Assembly: GCA_964619725.1 (NCBI GenBank) | Contig: CAZUFC010000026.1 | Span: 1 to 64,000 of the forward strand | Reading direction: 5' to 3' | DNA length: 64,000 nt | From: an uncultured bacterium | GTDB lineage: Bacteria; CSSED10-310; CAZUFC01 | Shown: positions 4,637-58,362 of the stretch, piece after piece | Layout: every line of letters starts with the position of its first letter | How positions within the stretch are numbered: the first letter of the stretch is position 1 | Translations under genes and position numbers: made by a program | The notes under the pieces: generated by a model | What the model was told of the DNA's origin: nothing | What the model saw: only the letters and a program-made list of their open reading frames with translations | The model's database searches: none

Positions 4637-4832
4637 GGGATTGATCAAACCGGGGTTGCACTTCTTTGTAATCTTTTGACAGTTCGTTTCAGTAATCGGG
4701 GTCGGTATCGAAATCGCAACCGGAATCTATAATTACAAGGAGATATGTTTTGTCTTCATCAGATTTTCAAATATCCTCATTTATTCAAGGCTGCGAAAAG
4801 CGTAACCTCAAAACGCGTATATTTGATCAATG
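4637..4832 (+). repeat. dispersed intergenic repeat family A, copy 1 (with internal insertion)
   Basis: GGGATTGATCAAACCGGGGTTGCAC...GTAATCGGGGTCGGTATCGAAATCG...GTAACCTCAAAA...TTTGATCAATG. Confidence 0.8.
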
Positions 4833-6923: not shown

Positions 6924-7036
6924 TTTTACTCGTCGATTCGCCTTCAAAGCGCTATTCAAAGAATGAAGATTCCCCATAAATACAGAAATCATCAGGCAGG
7001 CATGACTATCATAAATGACGGCAAAAGGGCAACCCA

Positions 7037-7080
7037 TTAATTCTCGCAAGCGAGAATTAATTTGTCCGCTTCGCGGAGCC
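7037..7080. repeat. double-hairpin repeat family C, copy 1
   Basis: TTAATTCTCGC-AA-GCGAGAATTAA then TCCGC-TTC-GCGGA; similar copy at 26881-26925. Confidence 0.6.
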
Positions 7081-7377
7081 TTATTCATTCGGATTATATG
7101 CAATAAAAAGCCTGATGTGCCGACTTTCGTGTTAAGTTCAGAGCTCGGCAAGGTCACGTATGATCATAAAAGTCGACATGTTAATTATTTGAATATAAAT
7201 GAAATAAATCTGATGAAAAATCGGGAATATAAATTGGACGTTCGCCGGCTTGAACGATGACCCCCCCTAAAAGCGGCAGAAGAGCGTTGATTTTGCTTAA
7301 TGCGTCGATGACGCGGCAGCATTCCTCCTCTGCATTAAAAGACAACCGCAAAATTGAATTCGGGTACGGGCTTTAAT

Positions 7378-14718: not shown

Positions 14719-15547
14719 CGCTTTGAAAAAGTTCGCTCCCGGACGAAAACGAGAGACTGCCGGAATAGCCGGTTTCACGCTTCTGGAAGTGATGCTTGCC
14801 GTAACGATTATGGCGCTGATGTCGGTAATAATCGTCAGCGGACTGCAGATGGCCATCAAAGCCTGGGAAACTGGCGACAGAGAAATTGAATCGCAGCAGA
14901 GGATCAGGATTCTCCTGGACAGGCTCTTCGAAGAACTTAAGTCAGCCTATAGAATGAGAATCAAGGTCGAAGAAGAATTCAGACGCCGCTATAAACTTGG
15001 ATTCATAGGCACTGCAGATCGTCTTGATTTCATTTCTACGGCAGACTCCCTCACCTCACATTTCCTCTCAACAGGATTGAAAAAAGTATCGCTTTATGTG
15101 AACAGTCTCGATGCCGACCTCAGGGGGCTGGTCCTCGAAGAATCATTCATAGACGGAACGGACTCGTTTTTCGATCCCGACACCGAGATTCCTTCCGTCG
15201 CTTATGAAGTGGCTCCGGACGTTACGGACATAAAACTTCGTTACTTCGTCTATCCGCCTTTACGCATCAAAAATATCGAAGGTTACGAGGAAGGCGAATG
15301 GATGGACTGGTGGGGCGGCGGTCTTGAAGAAGAGGAGGAGGCTGCCGAGGCTGAAGAAGAAGCCCCGGAAGAGGAAGGAGAACAGGATGACTGGGATACC
15401 TTCTTCGACAGGCATTCAAATCTTAATCTGCCTCATGGAATTGAAATTACCATCACTATGATCGATCCCAGGGACGAAAATAATACGATTACTTATCCTC
15501 CGGTCTACTTCAGCATGCCGGACAGCGTTGCTGAAGCCATGAAATAA
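14708..15547 (+). CDS. gspJ: minor pseudopilin GspJ-like
   Basis: G|FTLLEVMLAVTIM; C-terminal W..W...LP.GIEITI. Confidence 0.75.
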   Translation: MVYSALKKFAPGRKRETAGIAGFTLLEVMLAVTIMALMSVIIVSGLQMAIKAWETGDREIESQQRIRILLDRLFEELKSAYRMRIKVEEEFRRRYKLGFIGTADRLDFISTADSLTSHFLSTGLKKVSLYVNSLDADLRGLVLEESFIDGTDSFFDPDTEIPSVAYEVAPDVTDIKLRYFVYPPLRIKNIEGYEEGEWMDWWGGGLEEEEEAAEAEEEAPEEEGEQDDWDTFFDRHSNLNLPHGIEITITMIDPRDENNTITYPPVYFSMPDSVAEAMK

Positions 15548-15557
15548 GGAAAAAAAC

Positions 15558-16760
15558 TTGCGCAACATATCTCGTATAATAATTGCAGCGATTAAAAAAG
15601 CGCCTTTTAAAAATCAGAAAGGCGTCGCGCTTATCCTTACCGTCTGGTCCCTGGCGCTCCTGATGATAATGGCTTCCCAGTTCGCTTTCTCCATGCGCAC
15701 GGAAGTCAAAATTACGGCTAATTATAAACAGGAAGTTCAGTGTTATTATATCGCTTACGCCGGCATACAGGCCGCTTTGGCAGAAATGATAAAACCTTAC
15801 ACCAAAAACGCATTGAACGGCGATAAACTGGTTTTTATCCGCCCTTATTCTGACTATGAAACGAACCGGAATGAGGGTAGAGAAGAGGAAGAAGGACTGC
15901 CCTGCACTCCCCAACGCGAAAATGTTCCGCTGGGTCCGGGTTTCTTCAGCTATTATATCACTGATGAAGACGGTAAATTTAACGTCAATTCTTTAATTTC
16001 CCGCAGAAGCAATCGAAACGAAAGCAGTATAGAAAAATTCAGGGAACTGCTGGTCGCTTCCGGTGTCGAGGACGGGATAGAAGCCGACACTATCATAGAT
16101 TCGATTGCGGACTGGATGGACGATGACGATATGCACCACGCCAACGGCGCGGAACAGGATTGGTACGATAAAAACTATGAAGAAAAAGGCTTCGGTTTCC
16201 CCTACAAATGCAAAAACGGTAAACTGGATACTCTCGAAGAATTGATTCTCATCAGGGGGATAACGCCTGAGATACTGTACGGATCGGAGAGAGCTTCCAA
16301 CATGTTTTTGACGGGAGGCCCAAAGAACGATACGGGTTATGATGATGACGAAGCCGGCTTCACCGGCATTATTCAATATCTCACGGTTTACTCCTTTAAA
16401 CGCAATTACAAATCCATCAATAAGGATACGGCATCCCTGTTTTTGCTCAATGTCCTTTTCCCTGAAGAATTCGAGGACATCGCCGAATCGCGGGAATCTC
16501 AGGCGGAAGGCGAGGACGTTTCCGGACGGGGAAGACGCTCCAGGACATTCACAATCCAATCGACCGGATGGCTGAAAAATTCGCCGGTAAGCCGGACCAT
16601 TAAAGCCGTGGTCGATAATTTCGGGTCGTCCCGGGTTTCGTCGAGCCGTAACGGGAGAATCAGGGTCAGGTTCTGGAAAGACAACGCTGAATTTCTGGAA
16701 CCGGGAGAAACGTTGACTTTGGATTATTTTAAAGATACTAAAATATTTTCTTACGATTAG
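15558..16760 (+). CDS. gspK: minor pseudopilin GspK
   Basis: G|VALILTVW (no E5), DEDGKFNVN, IADWMDDDD, GAE, EELILIRGIT. Confidence 0.85.
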   Translation: MRNISRIIIAAIKKAPFKNQKGVALILTVWSLALLMIMASQFAFSMRTEVKITANYKQEVQCYYIAYAGIQAALAEMIKPYTKNALNGDKLVFIRPYSDYETNRNEGREEEEGLPCTPQRENVPLGPGFFSYYITDEDGKFNVNSLISRRSNRNESSIEKFRELLVASGVEDGIEADTIIDSIADWMDDDDMHHANGAEQDWYDKNYEEKGFGFPYKCKNGKLDTLEELILIRGITPEILYGSERASNMFLTGGPKNDTGYDDDEAGFTGIIQYLTVYSFKRNYKSINKDTASLFLLNVLFPEEFEDIAESRESQAEGEDVSGRGRRSRTFTIQSTGWLKNSPVSRTIKAVVDNFGSSRVSSSRNGRIRVRFWKDNAEFLEPGETLTLDYFKDTKIFSYD

Positions 16761-24756: not shown

Positions 24757-24940
24757 GGGACTGATCAAACCGGGGTTACACTTTTTACAAAACCTTCGAC
24801 AGTTAGTTTCAGTAATCGGAGTCGGTATCGGGTTCGTAATCGCAATCGCAACCCAAATCGAAATCAAAATCGAAATCGAAACAAAATGATAGAATATTCC
24901 GAAAAATGTAACCTCAAAAGATGCATTTTTGATCCATGCC
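24757..24940 (+). repeat. dispersed repeat family A, copy 2
   Basis: GGGACTGATCAAACCGGGGTTACAC...(AATCGA-like)n...GTAACCTCAAAAGATGCATTTTTGATCCATGCC. Confidence 0.85.
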
Positions 24941-25060
24941 GAAAAAACAATAAGGGGATGCCCGAAAACAAAATTCAACCGCCATTTTACAATTTCAATG
25001 AATTTTAGTACCCTGTAGTAACGTGGACAGTTTATGAACCTCGAACAGGGGAGGAACTCA

Positions 25061-27812: not shown

Positions 27813-27966
27813 GGGACTGATCGAACCAGGGTTAACTTTTTTCAAAACTTTTGACAGGTTGTTACAGTAATAGGGGTCGGTATCGAAATCCAAATCGAAA
27901 TCCAAACAAAATGAATGGATATTCGGAAGAATCACAACCTAAAAAGACGCATTTTTGATCAATGCC
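27813..27966 (+). repeat. dispersed repeat family A, copy 3 (left flank of DGR)
   Basis: GGGACTGATCGAACCAGGGTTA...GACGCATTTTTGATCAATGCC. Confidence 0.85.
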
Positions 27967-28100
27967 GAAAATTCCACTTTTAAAGTTCATCCTGGTAAAT
28001 AAACAAACCCAATCCAAAGACCGATCAAAAAAACATTGACGCAATCCAAGCACAACCGTATCATAAAAATCAACAAACCAACCGCTGGAAAGGAAAAAAA

Positions 28101-31100
28101 GTGACTTCATTTTCCAGGATAAACGATAACGAATCGCCCAAACGTATGCTGAACATATTCATATCATCCACGGCAGAAGACCTGGAGACTCACAGAACCA
28201 GGCTGATCAACGCAGTCCAGCGTTCCGGTCACCATCCCTCGTATATGGAAACATTCGGCGCAAGACCCGATCAGCCGGTAGAAGGATGCCGGAAATTAAT
28301 AAAAAAGTCTGACGCCGTAATAGTCATCGTCGCCTATCGTTACGGTTACGTGCCGGACAGAGACGAAGGCGGCGACGACAAACATTCCATGACCTGGCTG
28401 GAGGTCAAAGCGGCTGAGGAATTCAACAAGCCGGTATTCGCTTTTCTGGTCGATGAAAAAGCGCCCTGGACGAAAATGCGGGAAGAAAATTTGTTGAATG
28501 AGGTCCTGGAAGATGTTGAAGCATCACAACGAATTCTGAGTAACATGCGATCACTAAGGGAATTCAAAAAATATTTAGAAAAAAAATGCATGCGCGATAA
28601 ATTCCGATCAGAAGACGACTTGGCCGAAAAAGCGATTTCAAGCCTGTCCCGATGGATTAATGAAGAATTCGGACTTCGGACGAGCATCCCCGCAAGCGAC
28701 GCCGTATCCGAAACGGAAATCCTGGAAGGTTATCTGAACAAACTCCTCCCGGAAACAAGATGGATCGATATAAGAGGCATAAGCGCGGAGCGGGGATCAT
28801 CAAAGGACATGTGGCGTTTCCCCATTGAGGAACTTTTCACGCCGTTGAAAACCACAGGCTTCGCTAATAAAGCCGGCGGGTTCAAACCCGACATGGAAAA
28901 ACGCCGACCGGATGATATGCCGCTGAAAACGGAGGAACAGGACCAGCGACCGGAACTGTCGGATTTTCTGAAAGATAACCGCAAGCTGCTCCTGATAGGC
29001 GCGCCGGGAGGCGGAAAAACCACCTTCCTGCGCCTTATATCATGTGTGCTCGCAAAGGACCTCCTGGGAGAAAAGCATGGTTTCACTCAACCGGGCCGCT
29101 CGGTTCACCTGGGATTACACCTGACCGATGAACCGCCGGTCCCGGTCTTCATCAGGCTGGCTCTACTGGCATCTTACATGAATAAGGATGATGACGTCCC
29201 CTGCAACGATCACATATCCCGTATACTGAATCTTTTTCAAAAACTGTACGGCGAGCAAACCAGGGATATACTCGAAAAACGCCTGAACGAAGGGCGTTGC
29301 GCCCTTTTGCTAGATGGACTCGACGAAGTGGCCGACACCGACATGCGATGCCGAATCACAAATCTGGTGGATGAAATACTGCAGAAATGGGGAGAGAACC
29401 TGGTGATAGTCACTTCCAGACCGCACGGTTACAAGGAGGTCGAAGGATTAAAAGGCGTCGTAAAACTTGAAATAGACGAGTTTAACGAAAAGGACACGGC
29501 CGAATTCCTGAATAAGTGGGTCAACGTCATCTACTCTGAGCAGGATATGGAATCGCGGAACAGTTACCATCAGGAGCTGGAAGCGGCCATAGGATCATCC
29601 CGCAACATAAGAAGAATGGCCCGGAACCCCGTCATGCTGACCTGCCTGTGCGTGGTTCACTGGAACGAACGAAAGTTGCCGGAGGGCAAGGCTGACCTGA
29701 TGAGCGCGGTATTACGATGGCTGGTGGACGTCAGGAAAGAACAGAGGAAAAACGAAGGTTACACCAACACCTTTGCCGAAGAATGTTTCAAGTCGCTGGC
29801 CCTGGGCATGACGAATCATCCCGGAGGCAAAAAAAGCGTGGTCGACATAGCCTGGGCAGCCGAACAATTAGCCAAACCCTTCCATACCGAACAGGGAATT
29901 GACGACCTGGAAACCGTCCGAAGAAAAGGAAGTCATATCCTGGAATCAGAAATGATCTTCAGCGGCATTATAGAACGGGTCGGCCTGGGACAGTTAAGAT
30001 TCTGGCACCTGACTTTTCAGGAACATTACGCAGCCAGGCGCATTTCTGAACTGAGCGACCTGGACGATGAAACAGGATGGTGGCCTCTGATTAAACCTCA
30101 TATTTACGACCAGCAATGGTTCGAACTCCTGGACCATTTCGCGGGTTGCCTCTCCAGAAAAGGAAGGGAAAAACTCAACCTGCTCGTTGAAAGGTTTCTG
30201 AACGATTGCGATGACTCAGACCTGGCTTCAGTGGCTAAAACAGTCGGCATCCTGGGACGCCTGTTGCGAGTGCTCGAAGAATACGAATATACTCCGCCGC
30301 CGCAACTAGGCTGGGAAAAAGCACGCGAACGGGTCATGGAAATATTTAAAGTGGAAGGCGCAAAAAAAGTGAAAATCAAGCAAAGAATCACCGCAGCAGA
30401 AGCCCTGGGACAAAGCGGAGACCCCAGGTTAGAATTGCGTGAAAGGAAAAAGAATTTTAGACCGATTCCAGGACTCGAAAAGATAAAATTGGGAATATAT
30501 CCCGTCACCGTGGAAGAATACAAAGCCTTTGTCGAGGATGACGGTTACCGGAAACAGGATTTCTGGGGCGAATACTGGAGGATTCGTGAAAAAAATGAAT
30601 GGAATGCGCCCGATAATTGGGAGCGACAGTTGGACAAACCGAACCGTCCCGTCGTCTATGTGTCATGGTACGAAGCCAAAGCATACTGCCGCTGGCGATC
30701 CAAAACAGAACGCAGGGAGTATCGCCTGCCTGCGGAAAAAGAGTGGGAAGCGGCTGCCGTTAATCCTGACGGACCCTATCCATGGGGTAAAGAAGAACCG
30801 AATAATGAATTGGCGAATTATTATTTTGCGGGACCGAGAGAAACGACGCCTGTCGGTGTTTACCCGGCGGGCGCCACGCCTGAAGGTCACCTGGATATGG
30901 CGGGGAATGTCTGGGAATGGTGCGAAGATGACGTTACAAAAGAATACAAGGGCGATCGCCCTCTGCGGGCGCTGCGGGGCGGCTGCTTTTGGCTCGATGC
31001 TGTTTGCCTTCGCTCGACGGACCGTGACTGGCTCGAGGCTGATTACCGGAGCGACGACCTCGGCTTTCGGTTGGTCGTCGCCGCGAGCACGGTTGATGTT

Positions 31101-31103
31101 TGA
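28101..31103 (+). CDS. DGR target 1: DUF4062 - NACHT NTPase - FGE-sulfatase/C-type lectin fold protein
   Basis: IFISST..DL...ME.FGARP...RYG...SMTWLE (DUF4062); GAPGGGKTT, LLLDGLDEV, VTSR, NPVML, FWHLTFQEHYAA (NACHT); YPVT, PVVYVSWYEA, RLP.EKEWE, DMAGNVWEW, GFRLV (FGE). Alternative start ATG 28146. Confidence 0.92.
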   Translation: MTSFSRINDNESPKRMLNIFISSTAEDLETHRTRLINAVQRSGHHPSYMETFGARPDQPVEGCRKLIKKSDAVIVIVAYRYGYVPDRDEGGDDKHSMTWLEVKAAEEFNKPVFAFLVDEKAPWTKMREENLLNEVLEDVEASQRILSNMRSLREFKKYLEKKCMRDKFRSEDDLAEKAISSLSRWINEEFGLRTSIPASDAVSETEILEGYLNKLLPETRWIDIRGISAERGSSKDMWRFPIEELFTPLKTTGFANKAGGFKPDMEKRRPDDMPLKTEEQDQRPELSDFLKDNRKLLLIGAPGGGKTTFLRLISCVLAKDLLGEKHGFTQPGRSVHLGLHLTDEPPVPVFIRLALLASYMNKDDDVPCNDHISRILNLFQKLYGEQTRDILEKRLNEGRCALLLDGLDEVADTDMRCRITNLVDEILQKWGENLVIVTSRPHGYKEVEGLKGVVKLEIDEFNEKDTAEFLNKWVNVIYSEQDMESRNSYHQELEAAIGSSRNIRRMARNPVMLTCLCVVHWNERKLPEGKADLMSAVLRWLVDVRKEQRKNEGYTNTFAEECFKSLALGMTNHPGGKKSVVDIAWAAEQLAKPFHTEQGIDDLETVRRKGSHILESEMIFSGIIERVGLGQLRFWHLTFQEHYAARRISELSDLDDETGWWPLIKPHIYDQQWFELLDHFAGCLSRKGREKLNLLVERFLNDCDDSDLASVAKTVGILGRLLRVLEEYEYTPPPQLGWEKARERVMEIFKVEGAKKVKIKQRITAAEALGQSGDPRLELRERKKNFRPIPGLEKIKLGIYPVTVEEYKAFVEDDGYRKQDFWGEYWRIREKNEWNAPDNWERQLDKPNRPVVYVSWYEAKAYCRWRSKTERREYRLPAEKEWEAAAVNPDGPYPWGKEEPNNELANYYFAGPRETTPVGVYPAGATPEGHLDMAGNVWEWCEDDVTKEYKGDRPLRALRGGCFWLDAVCLRSTDRDWLEADYRSDDLGFRLVVAASTVDV
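30955..31091 (+). repeat. DGR variable repeat VR1
   Basis: 137-bp ungapped match to TR; 18 mismatches, all opposite TR adenines. Confidence 0.97.
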
Positions 31104-31135
31104 ATTATTGAATATTGATCTTTATTCTTGGGGTT

Positions 31136-31154
31136 CCAGGGGCGGAGCCCCTGG
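31136..31154 (+). promoter_or_regulatory. DGR target-recognition hairpin/cruciform downstream of VR1
   Basis: CCAGGGGC-GGA-GCCCCTGG, 32 nt after stop. Confidence 0.85.
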
Positions 31155-31242
31155 CGAACGCAAAAACGTAATTATGTCATTTTGTAAACCCCGCCATGCA
31201 ACCAAAACGACAAAATGACAAACAAAATGACAAGCGTGACAA

Positions 31243-32250
31243 TCATTGACGGATTGCCGCAAAACCGGTCAAACCGCGATAAGAAGACAACGAACGGTAA
31301 AAATCCTCCGGTCTTCCATGTCCGGCCAGATACCGGAGCCTTCTCCTCATCCTCACCAGCATTCGCCTGGATGGTCTTATGCCGGAACGTGAAACATGAT
31401 ATCCCAGATAAATGAAAGCGCCCGACGTCCGCCTGGGTTGAACAGAGGGATTCTTTATCCGCAGTCGCCTATTTTTCATCAACCAGTCTACGGCTGCTTC
31501 CTTCGCCTCGGCCAGGCGCCGGCGGGAATCGGAAAAAAGAGCTGTATCGTCCATGTAACGTTGAACGTGAGGTATTTTCAGCTCCCGTTTAAGGAAGTGG
31601 TCGAAGCCCGACAGGTAATGATTTCCCCACCATTGACTGGTTAAGTTGCCTATCGGCAATCCGCAATCGTAAGGCGGATACCCTGGCGGCAAATTCAGCT
31701 TTTCGGAAACGTCGCGCCTTCTGTAAATCCCACGCCCGCTGTCAGCGATTAATCTCAGCAACCATAAAAAATCATCGTCTTTTATTTTTTTCCTCATTAT
31801 CTGCATCAATATGTTAATATCAATGCTCAGAAAATAATGAGCGATATCCATCAAAAGAGCAAAACGATATCGCCTGACAGCGCCGAGAAAACGAATCACG
31901 GCCCTGTGCGATCCTCTGCCCGGAAGGCATGCGTAAGTTGTATCGATCAATCCCCTGTCCATGAACGGTGCGATAACTCTGTGAACTGCATGATGAACGA
32001 TTCTGTCACGTACCGAAGCGGCAGAAATCAGTCTTATCTTAGGGTCATTAATGAAAAACAGATGGTATCCTCCGTGACTATAATTTTTCTGCTCCAAATC
32101 ACGACTCAATTTAATAATTTCTCGATCCGCTTCGGCCTCGAATCGTCTGACCGAGGGCCGGTTCCGTTTCCCGCGACGAAATTGCCGCCAGGCACGCCAA
32201 AGATTCCTTATTTCTGCCGTTTTATGAAAGAGGTCGCCGGCTCTTTTCAT
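31243..32250 (-). CDS. DGR reverse transcriptase
   Basis: DPKIRLISAASVRDRIVHHA, YACLPGRGSH, MDIAHYF.SI, GLPIGNLTSQW (DGR-type SQ), RYMDD, FIYLGY; 335 aa with no maturase or endonuclease domain. Confidence 0.95.
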   Translation of the reverse strand: MKRAGDLFHKTAEIRNLWRAWRQFRRGKRNRPSVRRFEAEADREIIKLSRDLEQKNYSHGGYHLFFINDPKIRLISAASVRDRIVHHAVHRVIAPFMDRGLIDTTYACLPGRGSHRAVIRFLGAVRRYRFALLMDIAHYFLSIDINILMQIMRKKIKDDDFLWLLRLIADSGRGIYRRRDVSEKLNLPPGYPPYDCGLPIGNLTSQWWGNHYLSGFDHFLKRELKIPHVQRYMDDTALFSDSRRRLAEAKEAAVDWLMKNRRLRIKNPSVQPRRTSGAFIYLGYHVSRSGIRPSRRMLVRMRRRLRYLAGHGRPEDFYRSLSSYRGLTGFAAIRQ

Positions 32251-32437
32251 TTTCTGCCCCTATGCGGTTTTGTTTCTGGAATCCTTATCCCTGTATGAAC
32301 ATTGGACGGCTTTACAGAAACGGAAAGCCCGGCCGGACGTTCGGCGCTTGCCTACCAGAACGGCCGGGCGAAGGTTAATTCGGCATGCCGCAGCACGCCC
32401 GGATTCCTCCTGCACGGTGATCATCATCTTTCGTCAG

Positions 32438-32574
32438 CGTGTTCGCGGCGACGACCAACCGAAAGCCGATGTTGTCGTTCCGGTTATCAGCCTCGTTCCT
32501 GTTACGGTTCGTTGAGCGAAGGTTATCAGCATCGTTCCAATAGCTGCCGCCCCGCAGCGCCCGCAGAGGGCGAT
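32438..32574 (-). ncRNA. DGR template repeat TR (part of DGR RNA)
   Basis: between avd and RT; 31 adenines, 9 AAC codons in target frame; matches both VRs. Confidence 0.95.
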
Positions 32575-32601
32575 ACTTTTCAGAGAAACCCTCGGTCATC
32601 A

Positions 32602-32934
32602 TTATATCTCTTTCTGCTTTTTCAACCAACCGCCGATTTGCCGTCCTATAAGGTCCGCCTGCTGCGAAAATTCCAGGTAACTCATCTCTGTAAGTAACCC
32701 AAGCTCGAATCCCAACGCCATATATGCCCTGAGCAGACGCAGATCGCAGTCGGCATCGGTCAGGCTCTCGAACCTGTTGCGGCCTTGTATCGCAAGCGTT
32801 ATATCGTCAAGAAGATGAAAGCTTGCATTTATCAGTCTATTTTTCAATAAAGTGTAGCGCGGCAATGATTCCAGTTCCTCAAGAAGTACTCCGCATAAGG
32901 CCATAACATCTCTGTACAAAGGCGATTCTTTCAT
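32602..32934 (-). CDS. avd: accessory variability determinant Avd (four-helix bundle)
   Basis: 110 aa helical protein, LPRY, LRLLRAYM, C-terminal IGRQIGGWLKK; immediately upstream of TR. Confidence 0.85.
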   Translation of the reverse strand: MKESPLYRDVMALCGVLLEELESLPRYTLLKNRLINASFHLLDDITLAIQGRNRFESLTDADCDLRLLRAYMALGFELGLLTEMSYLEFSQQADLIGRQIGGWLKKQKEI

Positions 32935-32938
32935 CAGA

Positions 32939-33565
32939 CTAATAACCCGTCGGATCGCGGCGGCTGCCGAATCCTTGAAAACGCTTCCTGTACGATCTCT
33001 TTTCAGTACTCCTCACCAGCGATGATAAAAAAGGGATGTAATCCTGCTCTATCCTGTCCGCAAATTCAATACGCATCGATTCATCCGCTCCGTTTTTTAT
33101 CAGAAGTTGAATGACCGCAGAGGCCGCCGCTTTCCGGGCTTCATTATAATGCAGCGACTTGTTGTTCGGTTGATACTCGTGACACCCCCGGCAAAGCGCC
33201 GTTAGAGAATCCTCAAGAAGACGGCTCGCCGGATGCTCCTCTCCCAGACGCAAACTGGTCTCTTTGTATATGATTATCCCCGACTTGTAAGCCCGCAGAT
33301 CACGAACTGAATAATACCTGCCCTTTTTCACTTTGCCCACGGAACGGCCCACAGGGGAAATCGCCTCATCCGCCGCATCCTGCAGATTCTTCAGTCGCAT
33401 GGCCGCCGCTGTCCTCTGCGCATTACTCAAAGGCAGAACTTCAGAATCGATGACCCAGCGGCCGCCCTTTTTTCGTGCCGGCAATTCATTCTTCTTAATG
33501 GCGTAACGCAACTGCCTCACGCTTTTACCCAATAAGTCAGCAGCCTCTGATAAGGACAGTTCCAT
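32939..33565 (-). CDS. helix-turn-helix (excisionase/HTH_17-like) protein fused to a four-helix-bundle-like domain; likely start ATG 33565
   Basis: LSLSEAADLLGKSVRQLRYAIKKNELPARKKGGRWVI; C-terminal SVRDLRAY...LCRG...HYNEARKAAASAVIQL; AAGGGGAA RBS. Confidence 0.75.
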   Translation of the reverse strand: MELSLSEAADLLGKSVRQLRYAIKKNELPARKKGGRWVIDSEVLPLSNAQRTAAAMRLKNLQDAADEAISPVGRSVGKVKKGRYYSVRDLRAYKSGIIIYKETSLRLGEEHPASRLLEDSLTALCRGCHEYQPNNKSLHYNEARKAAASAVIQLLIKNGADESMRIEFADRIEQDYIPFLSSLVRSTEKRSYRKRFQGFGSRRDPTGY

Positions 33566-33706
33566 AAGTTCCCCTTTTGTCAAGATTGTTTCAATATCGG
33601 CAGTTTGTCAATGCTGTCTTTAACAAAACTGCTGTAATTCTTACATATTGTCAGTAATTTGTCAAGTTTAAACGGTGAAAATGACGAAATTTCGAATTTG
33701 TCGCGG

Positions 33707-33725
33707 CCAGGGGCTTCGCCCCTGG
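33707..33725 (-). promoter_or_regulatory. DGR target-recognition hairpin/cruciform downstream of VR2
   Basis: CCAGGGGC-GAA-GCCCCTGG on the minus strand, 32 nt after stop. Confidence 0.85.
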
Positions 33726-33757
33726 ACCCCTGAAAGACAAGAACAATTATCAATAAA

Positions 33758-36700
33758 TCAAACATCAACCGTGCTCGCGGCGACGACCAACCGAAAGCCG
33801 ACGAGGTCGTCCCGGGGACCAGCCTCGCTCCAGAGACGGTGCGGAGAGCGAAGGTTACCAGCAACGTCCCAATAGCCGCCGCCCCGCAGCGCCCGCAGAG
33901 GGCGATTTGAACTCCCCCCATATTCTTCAGTAACATCATCTTCGCACCATTCCCAGACATTTCCCGCCATATCCAGATGACCGGCCGGCGCAGCCCCTTT
34001 CGGATAAATTCCCACTGGTGTGGGGCTGTCCACGTTACTGTAAAAATTCGCCAACTCAGCATCAGGCTCATCTTTCCCCCAGGGATACGGACCGTTCGAG
34101 TTCCGCGCCGCATCTTCCCATTCTTCCTCGTAGGGCAGCCGATAATTCCGTTTCCGCTCCAGTTTAGAACGCCATCGGCAATAGGCCACGGCTTCGTACC
34201 AGGAAACTTCAACCACGGGTCTATTGGGCGTTTCCAACTGGTCCTCCCAACTGTCGGGTTTAGTCCAGTCGTTATCTTCACGAATTTTCCAGTATTCGCC
34301 CCAGAATTCCTCTTTGGAATAACCGCCGTCATCGACGAAGTCTTTAAACTCTTCGACGGTTACGGGATAAATACCGAGCATAAGATGTTCGCGTCCTGGT
34401 ACAAGCTCGAAGTTATTAACCCGCTTTTCCGGCGTCAGGCGAGGGTCTCCGCCCTGTCCCAGTCCTTCGGCCGCGGTAATTCTATCTTTGATTTTGACCT
34501 TTTCTGCGCCTTCAACAGTAAATATTTCCATAACCCTGTCGCGAGCCACTGTCCATCCGATCTGCGGCGGAGGCGTGTATCTGTAGACCTCCAGCACTCG
34601 AAGCAATCTTCCCAGGACGCCGACTGCCCTGGCCGTTCCCGCCAGTCCTTCTTGTTCGCCCTGTTCCAGAATACGTTTAACCAGTTTAGTCAGTCCATCC
34701 CTCCTTGTTTTTGCCAGGCACCCGGCGAAATGGTCCAGCACTTCGGCCCAGTTGCGATCATGCACATGAGGCGATATGATCCGCCACCACCCTTTTTCAT
34801 CATCTTCATCCCTGCATTGAGCCAGCATGACGGCAGCATAGTGTTCCTGAAACGTCAGGTGCTTGAACCGGACCTGTCCTTCATTGACTCTTTCCACTAT
34901 GCCGCTGTCCATCATTTCACATTCTAAAAATCGAGTTCCTTTATCGTTCAATTCCCTATGGTCCGTAATGCCGAATTCGTTGTAAAACGGTCCTTTCAGA
35001 AATTCAGCCGCTTCCGAAAGATCGGCGACGGCCTTTTTACCGGCTTTATGAGTCGTCATTTCAAATGCCAAGGTCTTGAAACACTGTTCAGCGAATTCAT
35101 TGCCGTAACCCCTGGATTCACGGACATGCTTGTGGGAATTCAACAACCACTTGAGCACAGCGGCCAAAAGATCGGCTTTACCTTCCGGCAGTTTTCTTTC
35201 ATTCCAGTGAACCACGCAGAGGCATGTGAGCATGACCGGGTTTTTCGCCAGTCTTCTTATCGTCGGCGATGAGATGATCGCTTCATTCAGCTCGAACCTG
35301 AGCTTACGGCATTCCCTTTGATCTTCGGGAAAAACCGCTGCCGCCCAGCGATCGATAAATTCGATTATTTCATCTTCGCCGAAATCGGAGATATGAGTGG
35401 TATTCATGGTTTCCAGTTCGGAGACTCCTTCGTATCCGAATGGACGTGAAGTGATGACGATCAGGCTCTTTTTCCATTTTTTGACGGAAGCTTCCACGAT
35501 ATTGATTACCTGCTCCCGTCTTTCCAGTTCAGGGACCTCATCCAGTCCGTCGAATAAAAGAGCGGCCCGTCCTTTGATCAAACGATTTTCGATAATATTA
35601 CGCATGGGTTTCCCATGGATGGATTCCAGGTATTCAAAAAGGCAGCGAACAGGGTTGACGTCTCTTCCCTGGTCATTTCTGGAAATATGCTGGGAAAGCG
35701 CGGCCAGGGTAACGAATACAGGCAGCGGAGCGACTTTCGCCAGGTCAAGCCCCAGGTGGATATGCCGTTCCTTCGCTGTTTCATTTTTCATTTCCGTAAG
35801 CATATCTTCCGCGGTAACGCATGCGATGAACCGTAAAAACGTGGTTTTACCGCCGCCGGGAGCCCCTACCAGCATCAGTTTGCTGCAATCCTTCAGCAAA
35901 TCTGAAAGTTTGACGTCGCGTTCTCTTTCCATACCGGCATGCTGCAATTCATCGTCACCGCCGGCGCTGCGTGATCGTCCTCTCCTGACCGCGCACTCCG
36001 GTCCCGCCGTTTTTAAAGGCGTAAACAGTTTTTTGATGGAAAAATGGCTGGCGGCATATCCTTCGCCCGCTCGCGAACCGATCCCCTGTATCTTGATGCG
36101 GGAAAATTGTGATACGACCGACTCCAGGTATTCCCTCAGCGCCTTCCTTTCAGAAACATGGTGCAGTTCTATATCCGGTCCGGGAACCGGTGGCGTTCGA
36201 TCGCCCGGTCTGAGAACGTCGATTCTCTCTCGCAGATGGTTTGAAAGCGCTGTTACCACTTTTTTCGCCAGGTTATCCGGGTTCAGGAATGTCGTTAAAG
36301 TATGTTTGTCGTTAAGGTGTTTTTTGAAGTTTTTGAGTTCCTGTATCGCCTTGTAAATATCCTGAATTTCGTGAGGTTTCGCCTCTTCCATACGGTCCTG
36401 TTCTTTCGGAAGAAAACGCTTAAGAGAATCGTCCGCAATATAAGCGAACACCGGAATGCCTTTTTTCTCAGCCGCTTCAACCTCGAACCAGGTAATGGAC
36501 TTTGCTCCGTTCCCGCCTTTTTCCGCCGTAGGGACCCATCCATAACGCCATCCGACGATAACGACCAGCGCATCAGCGCTATCTGCCATGCCCAAAGATT
36601 CGTTCAAAGGTGTATCGGGACGCGCTCCGAAGCTTTCCATCCCGACTGATTGAATGTGAAGATCGTCGACAGCTTCCCGGACTGCATTGCGATAAGGCTT

Positions 36701-36784
36701 CAGGTCTTCATAAGTAGAGGATATAAAAACGCGAAAAGCCCTGTGCCTGTCAAACGTGTTATCAGGATAACCATTTCGGTTCAT
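33758..36784 (-). CDS. DGR target 2: DUF4062 - NACHT NTPase - FGE-sulfatase/C-type lectin fold protein
   Basis: VFISSTYEDL..MESFGARP..RYG..SITWFE; GAPGGGKTT, LLFDGLDEV, ITSR; DMAGNVWEW..GFRLVVAASTVDV; paralogue of 28101..31103. Confidence 0.92.
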   Translation of the reverse strand: MNRNGYPDNTFDRHRAFRVFISSTYEDLKPYRNAVREAVDDLHIQSVGMESFGARPDTPLNESLGMADSADALVVIVGWRYGWVPTAEKGGNGAKSITWFEVEAAEKKGIPVFAYIADDSLKRFLPKEQDRMEEAKPHEIQDIYKAIQELKNFKKHLNDKHTLTTFLNPDNLAKKVVTALSNHLRERIDVLRPGDRTPPVPGPDIELHHVSERKALREYLESVVSQFSRIKIQGIGSRAGEGYAASHFSIKKLFTPLKTAGPECAVRRGRSRSAGGDDELQHAGMERERDVKLSDLLKDCSKLMLVGAPGGGKTTFLRFIACVTAEDMLTEMKNETAKERHIHLGLDLAKVAPLPVFVTLAALSQHISRNDQGRDVNPVRCLFEYLESIHGKPMRNIIENRLIKGRAALLFDGLDEVPELERREQVINIVEASVKKWKKSLIVITSRPFGYEGVSELETMNTTHISDFGEDEIIEFIDRWAAAVFPEDQRECRKLRFELNEAIISSPTIRRLAKNPVMLTCLCVVHWNERKLPEGKADLLAAVLKWLLNSHKHVRESRGYGNEFAEQCFKTLAFEMTTHKAGKKAVADLSEAAEFLKGPFYNEFGITDHRELNDKGTRFLECEMMDSGIVERVNEGQVRFKHLTFQEHYAAVMLAQCRDEDDEKGWWRIISPHVHDRNWAEVLDHFAGCLAKTRRDGLTKLVKRILEQGEQEGLAGTARAVGVLGRLLRVLEVYRYTPPPQIGWTVARDRVMEIFTVEGAEKVKIKDRITAAEGLGQGGDPRLTPEKRVNNFELVPGREHLMLGIYPVTVEEFKDFVDDGGYSKEEFWGEYWKIREDNDWTKPDSWEDQLETPNRPVVEVSWYEAVAYCRWRSKLERKRNYRLPYEEEWEDAARNSNGPYPWGKDEPDAELANFYSNVDSPTPVGIYPKGAAPAGHLDMAGNVWEWCEDDVTEEYGGSSNRPLRALRGGGYWDVAGNLRSPHRLWSEAGPRDDLVGFRLVVAASTVDV
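33770..33906 (-). repeat. DGR variable repeat VR2
   Basis: 137-bp ungapped match to TR; 19 mismatches, all opposite TR adenines. Confidence 0.97.
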
Positions 36785-36868: not shown

Positions 36869-37029
36869 GGGACTGATCACACACGGGTTACACTTTTTTC
36901 AAGTCTTGTGAAAGTTTGTTTGATTAATCGGAGTCGGTATCAGGATCGAAATCTAAATCGAAATCGAAACAAAATTATGGGATATCCGGAATAATTGTAA
37001 CCTCAAAAGACGCTTCTTTGATCAATGTC
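36869..37029 (+). repeat. dispersed repeat family A, copy 4 (right flank of DGR)
   Basis: GGGACTGATCACACACGGGTTACAC...GTAACCTCAAAAGACGC..TTTGATCAATGTC. Confidence 0.85.
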
Positions 37030-37282
37030 GAAAAACGTCAGGCGAAAGCTTCAGGAAATTGAGCCACGGATTTTCACGGATCGAACACGGATGAAATGAA
37101 TTTGAAATATGAAAAATGAACCGGACGGCGAAAACGCTGAACCAAAAGCTTACGCGTCTTCGCCGCCGCCGGTTATACGCATGACGATATGTTTTTGCCG
37201 TTTCCGCTGGACGTGCATGAAATCAAATTGCTTTTTTCAGCATGTGATGCTAGATTAAAACTTAGGAATGGGTGGAGAAAAG

Positions 37283-38155
37283 ATGATGAAATTTGTTGAT
37301 CCTAAAAATGATGTAGCGTTTAAAAAGATTTTTGGAGATGAGAACAAAAAACAGATACTCATCAGTTTCCTCAACGCCATTCTGGACTATATCGGCACCG
37401 ACAAGGAAATCGAAAGCATCGACATTTTGAATCCTTACCAGATTCCGAAGCTGCCGGGGCTTAAGGAGACTATTCTGGATATTCGGGCCGTAGACAGGCG
37501 CAAAGTCAGCTATATCATCGAAATGCAAGTTTTTCACACGCCTGCGTTTGAAAAACGAGTTCTTTACTATGCAGCCAAGTCCTACGCCATGCAGTTGGAA
37601 AAAGCCGAAGATTACCCCCGGCTGAACCAGGTGATCTTCATAGGTTTTCTGGATTTCATAGTATTTCGAGATGATCCTCGATACATGACGCGTCATCTGG
37701 TCCTGGAAGAAAAAACGAACGATCACTATTTGAAGGACTTGGACTTTCGGTTTATAGAATTACCGAAGTTTACCCGGGAGCTGGATGAAATAAAAGACGT
37801 CAAAGAGAAGTGGATATATTTCGTGAAAAATGCGGCGGACCTCCAGATTATACCCGCCAATATGAAAGAGCCTCCTGCTTTGCGCGAAGCTTTCGAGTCA
37901 GCGGATCAGATGAGTTGGAGCAAGGAAGAATTGCACGCTTATGATGCGAAGGGCATTTACATCCAGGACGAACGGGGCAGAATTGAACTGGCGCTGAGGC
38001 AGGGTGAAGAGATCGGCATGGTTAAAGGCGTAAAGATCGGAGCAGAAAGGGAAAAATTACAAACAGCCCTGAAAATGAAAAGGGAAGGTCTGGATGTTTC
38101 CATTATCATGAAGGTTACCGGGCTTTCACGTAATGATATTGCCGGATTGAAGTAA
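37283..38155 (+). CDS. Rpn family recombination-promoting nuclease / PD-(D/E)XK putative transposase
   Basis: DPKNDVAFKKIFG, LISFLNAIL, ILDIRA...IIEMQ, RVLYYAAK, FIELPKF, C-terminal GxxxG repeats and VTGLS. Confidence 0.9.
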   Translation: MMKFVDPKNDVAFKKIFGDENKKQILISFLNAILDYIGTDKEIESIDILNPYQIPKLPGLKETILDIRAVDRRKVSYIIEMQVFHTPAFEKRVLYYAAKSYAMQLEKAEDYPRLNQVIFIGFLDFIVFRDDPRYMTRHLVLEEKTNDHYLKDLDFRFIELPKFTRELDEIKDVKEKWIYFVKNAADLQIIPANMKEPPALREAFESADQMSWSKEELHAYDAKGIYIQDERGRIELALRQGEEIGMVKGVKIGAEREKLQTALKMKREGLDVSIIMKVTGLSRNDIAGLK

Positions 38156-38211: not shown

Positions 38212-38365
38212 GGGTCTGATCAAACCGGATTACACTTCTTTCAAGTCTTTCGAAAGTTTGTTTCGGAAATCGGTGCCGGTATCGCAATCGGTATCGGAAT
38301 CGTAATCGAACGAAATGATGGAATATTCGGAAGAATTCTCAAAAGACGCATTTTTAATCAATGCC
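38212..38365 (+). repeat. dispersed repeat family A, copy 5
   Basis: GGGTCTGATCAAACCGGATTACAC...AAAAGACGCATTTTTAATCAATGCC. Confidence 0.8.
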
Positions 38366-38373
38366 GATTATTC

Positions 38374-39932: not shown

Positions 39933-40090
39933 ATTGATCAAAAATGCGTCTTTTGAGGGAACAATCTGACAGAATCACCCGTCATTTTGTTTCGATTTCG
40001 ATTGCGACCCCGACCCCGAATCTATACCGATTACTGAAATAAAACGTCAAAAGGTTTTTAAAGAAGTGTTACCCCGGTTTGATCAGTCCC
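39933..40090 (-). repeat. dispersed repeat family A, copy 6
   Basis: ATTGATCAAAAATGCGTCTTTTGAGG...ACCCCGGTTTGATCAGTCCC. Confidence 0.85.
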
Positions 40091-42449: not shown

Positions 42450-42652
42450 GCATCGCAACCGGACATTCGATAAAAAGAACGGCGATATTTGGTCGCATTT
42501 ATCAAGTGTGTTCAAAATTGACCTTTCAAAGTTTTATGTAATATTGCAAACTCCACTATTCTCATTTGATATGAATTTAAAAAGCCGATACTCGTCTACG
42601 GAGGCGAAACCAGGCGAATGAGAATGAAAAAATGGATTCTAAAAAAATAAAC

Positions 42653-42724
42653 TCGAAATCGAAACAAAATTAATGGATATTCGGAAGAGTTGTAACCTCA
42701 AAAGAGGCATTTTTGATCAATGTC
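42653..42724 (+). repeat. dispersed repeat family A, partial (3' half)
   Basis: TCGAAATCGAAACAAAAT...GTAACCTCAAAAGAGGCATTTTTGATCAATGTC. Confidence 0.75.
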
Positions 42725-48924: not shown

Positions 48925-49151
48925 CTTAATCCTCCCGTCTGTCATGAGTTGACTGTTGCCGTAACATTAATAAAAAATATGAACCATAGCAAGAGATCGA
49001 CAGGCGATCTGCCAAAGGATTTATACAGATTTTTTTGGAAAAATCAAATTCACGTACTGTTTCGAAAGAGATACCTATACCGACCCCGATTACAGCCGGT
49101 TACTTCTTCTGATTTGAAAAAGCAGGACGATCTTCGACGAATAGATTTTTA

Positions 49152-49300
49152 GGCATTGATCAAAAAAGCGTCTTTTGCAGTTACGATTCGAAAGAATAGT
49201 TCATCAACTTGTTTCGATTGCGATTGCGATACCGATCCCGATTAATGAAACAAACCGTAAAAAGTTTTGAAAGATGTGTAACCCCGATCTGATCAGTCCC
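49152..49300 (-). repeat. dispersed repeat family A, copy 7
   Basis: GGCATTGATCAAAAAAGCGTCTTTTG...GTGTAACCCCGATCTGATCAGTCCC. Confidence 0.85.
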
Positions 49301-58230: not shown

Positions 58231-58362
58231 GATCAAAAATGCGTCTTTTGAGGTTACTGTTCTTCCGAATTTCCCATCATTTTGTTTCGATATCAACCCC
58301 TGATTATCGAAACAAAATGTCAAACGTTTTGAAGGAAGCGTAACCCCGGTTTGATCAGTCCC
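58231..58362 (-). repeat. dispersed repeat family A, copy 8
   Basis: GATCAAAAATGCGTCTTTTGAGGTTAC...GTAACCCCGGTTTGATCAGTCCC. Confidence 0.85.

Follow-up and report, generated by a model that had tools for sequence, protein, structure and literature searches.

What might a bacterium do with a retroelement that rewrites the C-termini of two large, receptor-like NTPases? This question is raised by a locus in a 64,000-nucleotide stretch of DNA from an uncultured bacterium (positions 1 to 64,000 of the forward strand of contig CAZUFC010000026.1, assembly GCA_964619725.1), which we refer to as the window. Positions 28101–36784 of the window (8.7 kb) contain a complete diversity-generating retroelement (DGR), composed of a reverse transcriptase (RT), the accessory protein Avd, a gene encoding a helix–turn–helix (HTH) protein, one template repeat (TR), and two variable repeats (VR1 and VR2). 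Each VR lies near the 3′ end of a gene for a large protein that combines a DUF4062 head, a NACHT NTPase module, and a C-type-lectin-fold (CLec) domain of the formylglycine-generating enzyme (FGE) type. The reading we favor, which we consider reasonably probable, is that one complete cellular DGR rewrites lectin-face codons of two paralogous cytoplasmic sensors that resemble NOD-like receptors (NLRs) and carry NADase heads, and that it does so for defense against invaders. The genes for target 2, the HTH protein, and Avd, followed by TR and the RT gene, form a run on the minus strand, and target 1, encoded on the plus strand, converges on this run. The individual features, with assignments based on open reading frames (ORFs), Pfam, and structural models, are as follows.

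28101–31103, plus strand: DGR target 1, 1000 aa, with DUF4062, NACHT, a helical/HEAT-like region, and an FGE-type CLec domain; GTG start, intact (ORF, Pfam, full-length model)
28149–28682, plus strand: TIR-like DUF4062 head of target 1, residues ~17–194 (Pfam match 28155–28412; Glu101 codon 28401–28403)
28956–30050, plus strand: NACHT module of target 1 (Pfam NACHT over residues 296–474, motifs, Foldseek)
30486–31076, plus strand: FGE-type C-type-lectin-fold domain of target 1, putative sensor (Pfam FGE-sulfatase, residues 796–992)
30955–31091, plus strand: VR1, codons 952–997 of target 1
31136–31154, plus strand: candidate target-recognition hairpin after VR1, CCAGGGGC-GGA-GCCCCTGG, GC-rich, starting 44 nt after the VR1 end
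31243–32250, minus strand: DGR reverse transcriptase, 335 aa, with IGNLTSQ at residue 200 and YMDD at residue 232
32438–32574, minus strand: TR, 137 nt with 31 adenines
32602–32934, minus strand: Avd accessory protein, 110 aa (Pfam bAvd)
32939–33583, minus strand: HTH_17 protein, 214 aa (Pfam HTH_17, 9.9e-10)
33707–33725, minus strand: matching GC-rich hairpin after VR2, starting 44 nt after the VR2 end
33758–36784, minus strand: DGR target 2, 1008 aa, with DUF4062, NACHT, a helical region, and a CLec domain; intact, first gene of the minus-strand run (ORF, Pfam)
33770–33906, minus strand: VR2, near the C-terminus of target 2

The three repeats, which we located with a repeat finder and by alignment, differ from each other in a strictly adenine-specific manner. 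Relative to TR, VR1 has 18 mismatches and VR2 has 19, every one of which (18/18 and 19/19) falls on a TR adenine; the non-adenine positions are identical across TR, VR1, and VR2 (106/106). In contrast, the coding DNA 150–600 nt upstream of VR1 and of VR2 shares only 67–69% identity. The restriction of all differences (37/37) to TR adenines, together with the complete identity elsewhere next to such diverged flanks, excludes chance or ordinary sequence divergence as the source of this pattern, and it shows that both VRs were overwritten from this TR recently on the evolutionary scale. At the adenine positions themselves, VR1 and VR2 are alike in 8 of 31 cases. No further VR for this TR was found in the source genome.

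The position of the adenines in the reading frame determines what such overwriting can produce. Almost all TR adenines (30/31) occupy codon positions 1 or 2, and the TR frame contains ten AAC codons, nine of which lie between residues 965 and 986 and the tenth at residue 996. An adenine substitution in TR cannot yield a stop codon, and the 21 variable codons allow ~10^17.7 possible amino-acid combinations per VR. In DNA folds, the GC-rich sequence that follows each VR forms a hairpin stem. This hairpin, with an 8-bp GC stem, is conserved 44 nt after both VR1 and VR2 and is absent after TR. The hairpin of the Bordetella phage DGR provides an analogue for reading such structures as target-site elements, and by this analogy the hairpins described here are probably candidate target-site elements of DGR homing. 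A scan of the window against Rfam at gathering thresholds gave no match.

The protein components of the retroelement are equally recognizable. The RT matches Pfam RVT_1 (5.5e-11) and the PADLOC RT model (5.8e-36), and its gene starts 187 nt downstream of TR on the same strand. Its IGNLTSQ sequence conforms to the I/LGxxxSQ motif, a hallmark of DGR reverse transcriptases. Avd is recognized by Pfam bAvd (4.5e-12, 46.9 bits with a cut-off of 40), and it also matches the NCBIfam model DivGenRetAVD (1.8e-12), with a score of 47.5 bits that is under the model's cut-off of 80. The HTH_17 protein, whose place between the genes for target 2 and Avd is conserved in cassettes of this type, carries a C-terminal stretch of ~150 residues without annotation, and no similarity was found between this protein and Avd. 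Homologues occupy the same position in a second cassette of the source genome (contig C9, 44% identity) and in a related locus of an Acidobacteriota metagenome-assembled genome (MAG; locus L006, 39%), and they are also present in loci L048 and L061. The protein may be a regulator or an accessory factor of the cassette.

What, then, are the proteins that this DGR rewrites? The first-pass annotation, made from the sequence alone, had described both targets as ~1000-residue proteins with an N-terminal DUF4062-like domain, a NACHT NTPase of the NLR type, and a C-terminal FGE-type CLec domain whose last ~45 codons form the VR, and it had called for a profile and structure check of these three parts. 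Both ORFs are as described, all three domains were recovered by that check, and each domain exceeds the curated Pfam cut-off in both targets. VR1 covers residues 952–997 of the 1000 residues of target 1, which agrees with the proposed extent of the repeat, and TR/VR alignment, Pfam, and PDB matches jointly place the VR in the FGE-type CLec domain. The sequence motifs quoted in that annotation are likewise present in both proteins, with the Walker B motif reading FDGLDE in target 2. Similarity between the two paralogues rises along the polypeptide: in tblastn comparisons of target 1 pieces with target 2, identity is 37% for DUF4062, 49% for NACHT, 60% for the middle region, and 69% for the CLec domain.

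The N-terminal head is assigned to DUF4062 by Pfam in target 1 (residues 19–104, 1.8e-18, 66.9 bits) and in target 2 (4.4e-18, 65.7 bits; cut-off 24.7). In a sequence search of the Protein Data Bank (PDB), residues 16–87 of the head match chain 10wc_A, annotated as “KpSwz TIR/DUF4062” (E 1.3e-05); the TEP1 chain 11gz_A gives no significant sequence match (E 0.99). A structural model of the head (214 residues) has a mean predicted local distance difference test (pLDDT) score of 89.5. Foldseek relates this model to the plant TIR domains of RPS4, RPPT, Roq1, and RUN1, to the CMP N-glycosidase MilB, and to nucleoside 2′-deoxyribosyltransferases (NDTs); further matches include SPARTA TIR, TIR-STING, DNPH1, and SARM1. 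For the top matches (RPS4, RPPT TIR, MilB, and NDT), the target-normalized template-modeling (TM) scores are 0.55–0.60. As modeled, the N-terminal domain folds like a TIR domain or a nucleoside deoxyribosyltransferase, and the TIR/NDT fold thus accords with the DUF4062 assignment.

The head also retains a candidate active-site residue. The sequences SMTWLE in target 1 and SITWFE in target 2, both at residue 96, had been singled out for a conserved glutamate, and an alignment of 40 DUF4062-bearing homologues bears this out: Glu101 of the S-x-T-W-x-E motif is invariant in 40/40, as are F20, S23, T24, D27, R32, D71, P85, and S96. In the head model, Glu101 lies in helix 97–107, which follows strand 72–77. 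A complex prediction with two copies of the head (residues 14–200) scored 0.00 with a mark of 0.42, which gives no verdict either way. The text of a recent preprint describes DUF4062 as a TIR-like NADase in phage defense, and reports for KpSwz that the active-site Glu97 is needed for defense and NAD+ depletion and that the phage portal is the activator (Osinski et al, 2026, bioRxiv 10.64898/2026.05.01.722283). According to the same text, DUF4062 adjoins NACHT in human NWD1, NWD2, TEP1, and NPHP3. The same view of DUF4062 is taken in the preprint text on the DUF4062 defense family Evangelion (Ibarra-Chavez et al, 2026, bioRxiv 10.64898/2026.06.25.731849).

The central module is a well-preserved NACHT NTPase. 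Pfam NACHT scores 41.4 bits (1.7e-10) in target 1 and 31.5 bits (1.9e-07) in target 2, with a cut-off of 26.7. Walker A (GAPGGGKTT) is found at residues 300 and 307 of targets 1 and 2, respectively, Walker B at 404 (LDGLDE) and 411 (FDGLDE), TSRP at 438 and 445, NPVML at 509 and 515, and HLTFQEHY at 636 and 642, so that the Walker A, Walker B, sensor, and winged-helix histidine motifs are intact in both proteins. Eleven residues in this region (G300, P302, G303, G305, K306, T308, D405, D408, E409, R440, and H636) are invariant in 40/40 of the aligned homologues. A full-length model of target 1 (pLDDT 85.7, predicted TM score 0.73) matches NLRC4 (E 6e-11), NOD2, NLRP3, and NAIP/NLRC4 over ~520–670 columns in Foldseek, consistent with a module of the NLR type. 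Pfam NPHP3_N also matches the NACHT region weakly (E 9.2e-4), and it appears in the precomputed domains of many homologues.

The C-terminal domain, in which the VR resides, matches Pfam FGE-sulfatase in target 1 (3.9e-40) and target 2 (2e-39). Its structural matches in Foldseek are EgtB, ToxD, FGE, and PvdO, and its PDB sequence matches are ToxD, EgtB, FGE, and the DGR-diversified protein TvpA (2y3c, E 6.5e-4). The NCBIfam profiles of FGE-fold enzymes all score far under their cut-offs (EgtB 86/360 bits, SenA 76/420, OvoA 66/400, PvdO 57/500), which indicates that the lectin-fold domain is not a known FGE-type enzyme. TR encodes no cysteine in the variable stretch, which we take to be the position of the catalytic cysteine pair of FGE. 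Regarding localization, the absence of a signal peptide or transmembrane helix noted earlier holds under a Kyte–Doolittle analysis, in which no hydrophobic segment was seen: the maximal 19-residue mean is 1.11 in target 1 and 1.57 in target 2, and neither N-terminus is hydrophobic. By this crude hydropathy test, both targets are predicted to be cytoplasmic and to lack a membrane segment.

The head varies among related proteins. A search with residues 1–780 of target 1 scored 7999 proteins, 1026 of which passed E ≤ 1e-3. Among the best 120 of these 1026, 44 carry DUF4062 (including the two proteins of the window itself), 20 NNH5, 15 HD-CE, 2 Metallophos, 2 HTH, and one each SEFIR/TIR_2, PNP_UDP_1, and Trypsin_2; another 34 have no N-terminal Pfam family. 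Re-scanning of nine homologues with hmmscan confirmed their heads and revealed two with an Mrr-type nuclease ahead of DUF4062. Among the listed matches, the NACHT–CLec portion of homologues with other heads is ~47–53% identical to that of target 1, compared with 33–47% for DUF4062 homologues from other sources. Cores with other heads are thus as close as, or closer than, cores with DUF4062, which indicates that heads are exchanged on closely related cores. Judged from these sequences, the head is best regarded as a putative exchangeable effector on a conserved NACHT–lectin core, which supports the effector–STAND–sensor interpretation (STAND, signal transduction ATPases with numerous domains). 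The Acidobacteriota locus L006 provides an example: it shares the gene order, including the HTH and Avd genes, its RT is 53% identical, and its two targets are a Metallophos–NACHT–CLec and a TIR_2–NACHT–CLec protein. In the latter, a canonical TIR domain occupies the place of DUF4062.

To describe the wider distribution, contigs from one genome per species were searched; of 595 stretches that fit the search patterns, 410 encode relatives, and 80 were kept for locus analysis. These 80 loci come from Acidobacteriota, Planctomycetota, Chloroflexota, Magnetococcales, Desulfobacterota, Promethearchaeota, and other taxa. An adenine-biased TR/VR pair was flagged in 15/80 loci, and 14 remained after locus L077, in which the apparent pair is an inverted-repeat artefact of the contig end, was dropped. 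In 12/14 loci the matched gene carries the VR at its own 3′ end, and in the other two (L028 and L078) the VR lies in a neighboring gene. Six of the 12 loci with their own VR are DUF4062-type genes of Acidobacteriota. Among the 21 DUF4062-type loci, defined by a match that starts within the first 20 residues, the VR belongs to the gene itself in these 6, and in 2 others an RT lies at the contig end.

Together, these features suggest how the system might operate. The RT–Avd complex would copy TR RNA with errors at adenines, and the resulting complementary DNA (cDNA) would replace VR1 and VR2, with the GC-rich shared 3′ end and the downstream hairpin probably marking the sites. As a result of VR replacement from mutated TR cDNA, each cell lineage would carry its own pair of sensor specificities, with ~21 codons varied at the ligand-binding face. 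The resting target protein would be autoinhibited until a cytoplasmic ligand, most likely a phage protein or a protein of another invader, binds the variable lectin face and releases the NACHT switch. The NACHT module would then oligomerize on ATP and bring the DUF4062 heads together, and the heads would hydrolyze NAD+ via Glu101, so that the infected cell arrests or dies (abortive infection). A more specific version of this scheme, which we put forward only tentatively, holds that the DUF4062–NACHT–CLec proteins are anticipatory receptors, in which VR variants that happen to bind phage trigger NAD+ depletion and useful VR lineages are selected.

Several observations weigh against a role in defense by ongoing diversification. 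The defensive function, the ligand, the NADase activity, and the oligomerization are all parts of the scheme that we infer. In PADLOC-DB 2.0, target 1 matches only mad8 (E 0.002 over 34 residues) and target 2 has no match, and the NCBIfam defense-related models EruA (16.2/16.9 bits, cut-off 1000) and DS8 (18.5 bits, cut-off 790) score far below their thresholds. The HMMER alignment to KpSwz ends at residue 87, short of Glu101; because it stops there, the correspondence of Glu101 to Glu97 of KpSwz is drawn by inference and not residue by residue. The neighborhood, with its type II secretion genes, Big_1 proteins, PDDEXK_2 transposase, and sulfatase, is not a defense island. Across the 80 loci, an RT is found within the examined flanks in only 17, and most relatives thus have no DGR in cis; part of these contigs are of limited length, however, and a DGR may also serve targets in trans. 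Moreover, when the activator of a suicide enzyme mutates at random, autoimmunity becomes a problem, and the model offers no solution to it. Finally, the locus is contained, as assembled contigs (Logan), in four sequencing runs of one study, one of which may be the origin of the DNA itself; the samples are not independent. Contigs X2 (covering 30448–31058), X3 (30919–31109), and X4 (33792–33956), which represent three further samples, equal the VR letters of the window, with 0 that differ. Since assembled contigs drop rare variants, this identity is weak evidence against current diversification, and it does argue against large between-sample differences in the consensus. Contig breaks at 31074–31089 and 33772–33787 are best explained by the shared 3′ ends of TR and the VRs. 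No RNA sequencing runs with the locus were listed, which is uninformative with respect to expression.

These points bear differently on the other explanations that the locus admits. Agreement of the VR letters among contigs of up to four samples, all from a single study, would be expected if the cassette had once diversified its targets and is now silent, leaving NLR-like receptors of fixed specificity or proteins without function, and degenerate relatives do exist in the same genome (a 617-aa protein on contig C9 and a fragment with an in-frame TAG on contig C6). However, both targets, the RT with its YMDD motif, Avd, and TR are all intact. The identity at all 106 non-adenine positions, set against flanks of ~68%, points to homing into both VRs that was recent on the evolutionary scale, and the complete lack of non-adenine mismatches is telling, as such mismatches build up once homing ends. 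We therefore consider a frozen relic very unlikely. The setting of the locus outside any defense island also fits a role in ordinary signaling, in which the NACHT–CLec proteins would be tunable ligand sensors whose heads adjust NAD+ or nucleotide pools, or emit a signal, without killing; homologous cores bearing HTH and Metallophos heads, which are not obviously toxic, would agree with this. Yet the other heads on these cores (TIR, SEFIR, trypsin, Mrr-type nuclease, PNP, and HD-CE) belong to the classic effectors of biological conflict, DUF4062 itself is presented as an abortive-infection NADase in the texts of two independent preprints, and ~10^17.7 combinations make little sense for a fixed physiological ligand, so that a non-immune role appears to us quite unlikely.

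A third explanation shares the killing step and differs in what is sensed. Doré et al (2024; PMC10907252) raise, in their main text, kin recognition as an alternative for this class of proteins, and here the lectin face would sense proteins from non-kin cells of the same species in a dense mat or aggregate, met for instance through exchange of cytoplasm, and kill in the manner of fungal NACHT het loci. The DNA does come from a microbial-mat metagenome, the 9.17-Mb genome holds at least three DGR cassettes with NACHT–CLec targets, and the paralogous targets carry different VRs, as their agreement at 8/31 adenine positions demonstrates. Nevertheless, recognition of kin or of self and non-self is unlikely in our judgment: the sensors are predicted to be cytoplasmic, no machinery for cell–cell transfer is linked to them (the upstream type II secretion operon forms a unit of its own), random somatic diversification would set clonal sisters against each other, and multicellularity of the host is without support. 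Sensing of invaders by the two diversified proteins thus remains the account that we prefer.

Comparison with known systems places the locus within an established class and also sets it apart. The hypothesis that DGR-diversified STAND–CLec proteins are immune sensors has been published, ahead of any test, by Doré et al (2024, PNAS, PMC10907252), and DGR-linked FGS domains within NTP-dependent conflict systems were described before that (Kaur, Burroughs, Iyer & Aravind, 2020, eLife, PMC7159879). In the literature searched, we found no later test of the immune-sensor idea. The closest parallels are DGR 3 and DGR 6 of Thiohalocapsa PB-PSB1 (RT clade 5D), in which, going by the main text of PMC10907252, one DGR likewise serves two targets. 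Clade 5D targets as described there also have a single C-terminal CLec domain with the VR and a central STAND NTPase (NACHT or nSTAND1), with N-terminal effectors (TIR or peptidase) in some of them; a cytoplasmic location is predicted, and large genomes contain several DGRs each. This likeness is one of target layout. Unlike these systems, the proteins of the window carry a DUF4062 head, which is absent from the main text of Doré et al (2024). Furthermore, going by the description of the Thiohalocapsa DGRs in that text, the window differs in having no adaptor (EAD) or separate peptidase gene, and its host belongs to a sparsely sampled phylum.

As far as the main text of Kaur et al (2020) describes them, the FGS/CLec domain in its systems is, as here, always C-terminal, DGR-diversified, and read as a direct invader binder, and it occurs together with effector domains and NTPase switches. 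The systems to which that paper gives most detail are ternary (vWA–MoxR–VMAP), whereas here sensor, switch, and effector are united in one polypeptide and no MoxR, vWA, or VMAP gene lies nearby; Pfam scans of 35 ORFs of the window gave no match to any of these families. Swarozyc (KpSwz) and Evangelion (Eva01), in the versions given by the two preprint texts, share with the targets an N-terminal DUF4062 domain with a conserved glutamate and an auxiliary (AUX) sensing region as the proposed trigger of the NADase. Their AUX is a fixed domain of small size, and that of KpSwz binds the phage portal; in the window, this role would fall to NACHT and a DGR-varied lectin fold. Neither preprint's text mentions a lectin, FGE, or a retroelement, and no literature linking DUF4062 with DGRs was found in the main texts searched. 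To judge by domain content, the targets are not members of Swarozyc or Evangelion and appear similar to them at the effector end, where the match to KpSwz covers only residues 16–87.

In the bacterial NLR-like proteins bNACHT and Avs, for which a defensive role has been shown by experiment, an N-terminal effector, a STAND NTPase, and a C-terminal sensor are combined, and ligand binding leads to abortive infection. The sensor of those proteins consists of repeats, such as TPR, that are fixed in the germline; in the targets, by contrast, it is a CLec fold that is rewritten by a retroelement. The eukaryotic proteins TEP1, NWD1, NWD2, and NPHP3 resemble the targets in having DUF4062 directly N-terminal to a NACHT ATPase, and differ from them in ending in WD40 or TPR repeats that are not diversified (as presented in the text of Osinski et al, 2026). 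At the other end of the polypeptide, the targets resemble Mtd of Bordetella phage BPP-1 and TvpA of Treponema denticola, where the VR likewise occupies the very C-terminal end of a CLec/FGE fold and adenine mutagenesis draws on a TR beside avd and RT genes. Mtd and TvpA, however, are extracellular receptor-binding or surface proteins, whereas the targets of the window are predicted to be cytoplasmic multidomain NTPases. The locus is, in sum, a clean, intact case of an already described class, in which the DUF4062 head, a predicted NADase, is the new element with respect to the literature searched.

The window DGR is also not the only one of its kind in the source genome, a MAG of 9.17 Mb in 344 contigs (90.9% complete, 6.5% contamination) obtained from the microbial-mat metagenome. 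This genome holds at least three DGR cassettes with NACHT–CLec targets. The second cassette (contig C9, ~100.8–108.8 kb; locus L104, 1823–9801) has the same gene order, an RT that is 59% identical to that of the window, and a VR in which 13/15 mismatches fall on adenines. Its targets are a Metallophos–NACHT–CLec protein (1206 aa) and the 617-aa DUF4062-fragment–CLec protein, in which DUF4062 is reduced to profile positions 1–55 of 82 and NACHT is missing; this protein keeps an adenine-biased VR (13/15) and may be a deletion derivative or a decoy. The third DGR lies on the 4.5-kb contig C280 (locus L105), where TR (364–491) and VR (2517–2644) differ with 19/21 mismatches at adenines and the target is again a NACHT–CLec protein; its RT is 33–35% identical to the window RT. 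NACHT–CLec genes are also found on contigs C8, C23, and C324. The target fragment on C324 is very similar to the target of C280 and could stem from strain variation or from duplication in the assembly. In addition, contig C6 contains a DUF4062–NACHT fragment (15020–16510) that is 38% identical over residues 7–507, contains an in-frame TAG, and lacks a CLec domain; it is probably a pseudogene or a split gene.

Among the species genomes compared, the nearest relatives of the MAG are related at the phylum level only, and its lineage is very poorly sampled. Among the same-phylum genomes (12 with at least 69% completeness and one with 60%), a NACHT–CLec relative is present in G005 alone, at 31% identity, and others contain CLec-domain matches only. 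Genes for an EpmA/GenX-type class II tRNA-synthetase-like protein, ThyX, a MiaB-like protein, a PMP-repeat protein, and two Big_1 proteins lie upstream of the cassette, as does a complete type II secretion operon; on the downstream side are genes for a PDDEXK_2 transposase and a sulfatase. For the EpmA/GenX-like protein (72–1403), no homologue above 47% identity was found in 5.8 billion proteins, and the best full-length matches reach 42%; the protein is named after its homologues, whose taxon labels are heterogeneous (Gemmatimonadota, Patescibacteria, Myxococcales). The neighboring ORF at 1400–2929 (plus strand, 509 aa) contains two Thy1 (ThyX) stretches and resembles a flavin-dependent thymidylate synthase in tandem or duplicated form. 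Four minus-strand ORFs (4938–7157, 46507–48945, 58471–61008, and 61005–63755) encode proteins of 739–916 aa with no Pfam family at E ≤ 1e-5.

The intergenic regions of the window contain a dispersed repeat of ~137 nt with short periodic motifs resembling TCGAAATCCAAATCGAAATCC, which yields 514 blastn high-scoring segment pairs on 207/344 contigs of the MAG. Copies are located at 27835–27971, 36892–37034, 4660–4719, 24857–24945, 38234–38367, 39933–40003, 42649–42722, 49147–49272, and 58231–58291. The summed contig depth of the repeat is 286–392, compared with ~8 for the flanking genes, and it looks like a miniature inverted-repeat transposable element or a repetitive extragenic palindromic element. 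The two copies that bracket the cassette (27835–27971 and 36892–37034) were considered as its ends and rejected, since they are copies of this genome-wide repeat. The PDDEXK_2 “transposase” family gene (37268–38155, plus strand, 8e-52) adjoins the cassette between two of the repeat copies.

For the family as a whole, the locus widens the known effector repertoire to DUF4062 and ties the bacterial pairing of DUF4062 and NACHT to that of human TEP1, NWD1, and NPHP3. It also lends itself to testing, as it is compact (8.7 kb), its parts are intact, its sensors are predicted to be cytoplasmic, and its effector offers a readout that, according to the texts of the two 2026 preprints, is glutamate-dependent NAD+ hydrolysis. 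If DGR-diversified NLR-like proteins do act as immune sensors, they would be protein-based, somatically diversifying receptors, nearer in their logic to vertebrate antigen receptors than to CRISPR. Should the two targets prove to be anticipatory receptors, they would represent a receptor-diversifying, NLR-based form of adaptive immunity in a bacterium, and two differently tuned paralogues, together with two or more further cassettes in the same genome, would amount to a multi-receptor repertoire.

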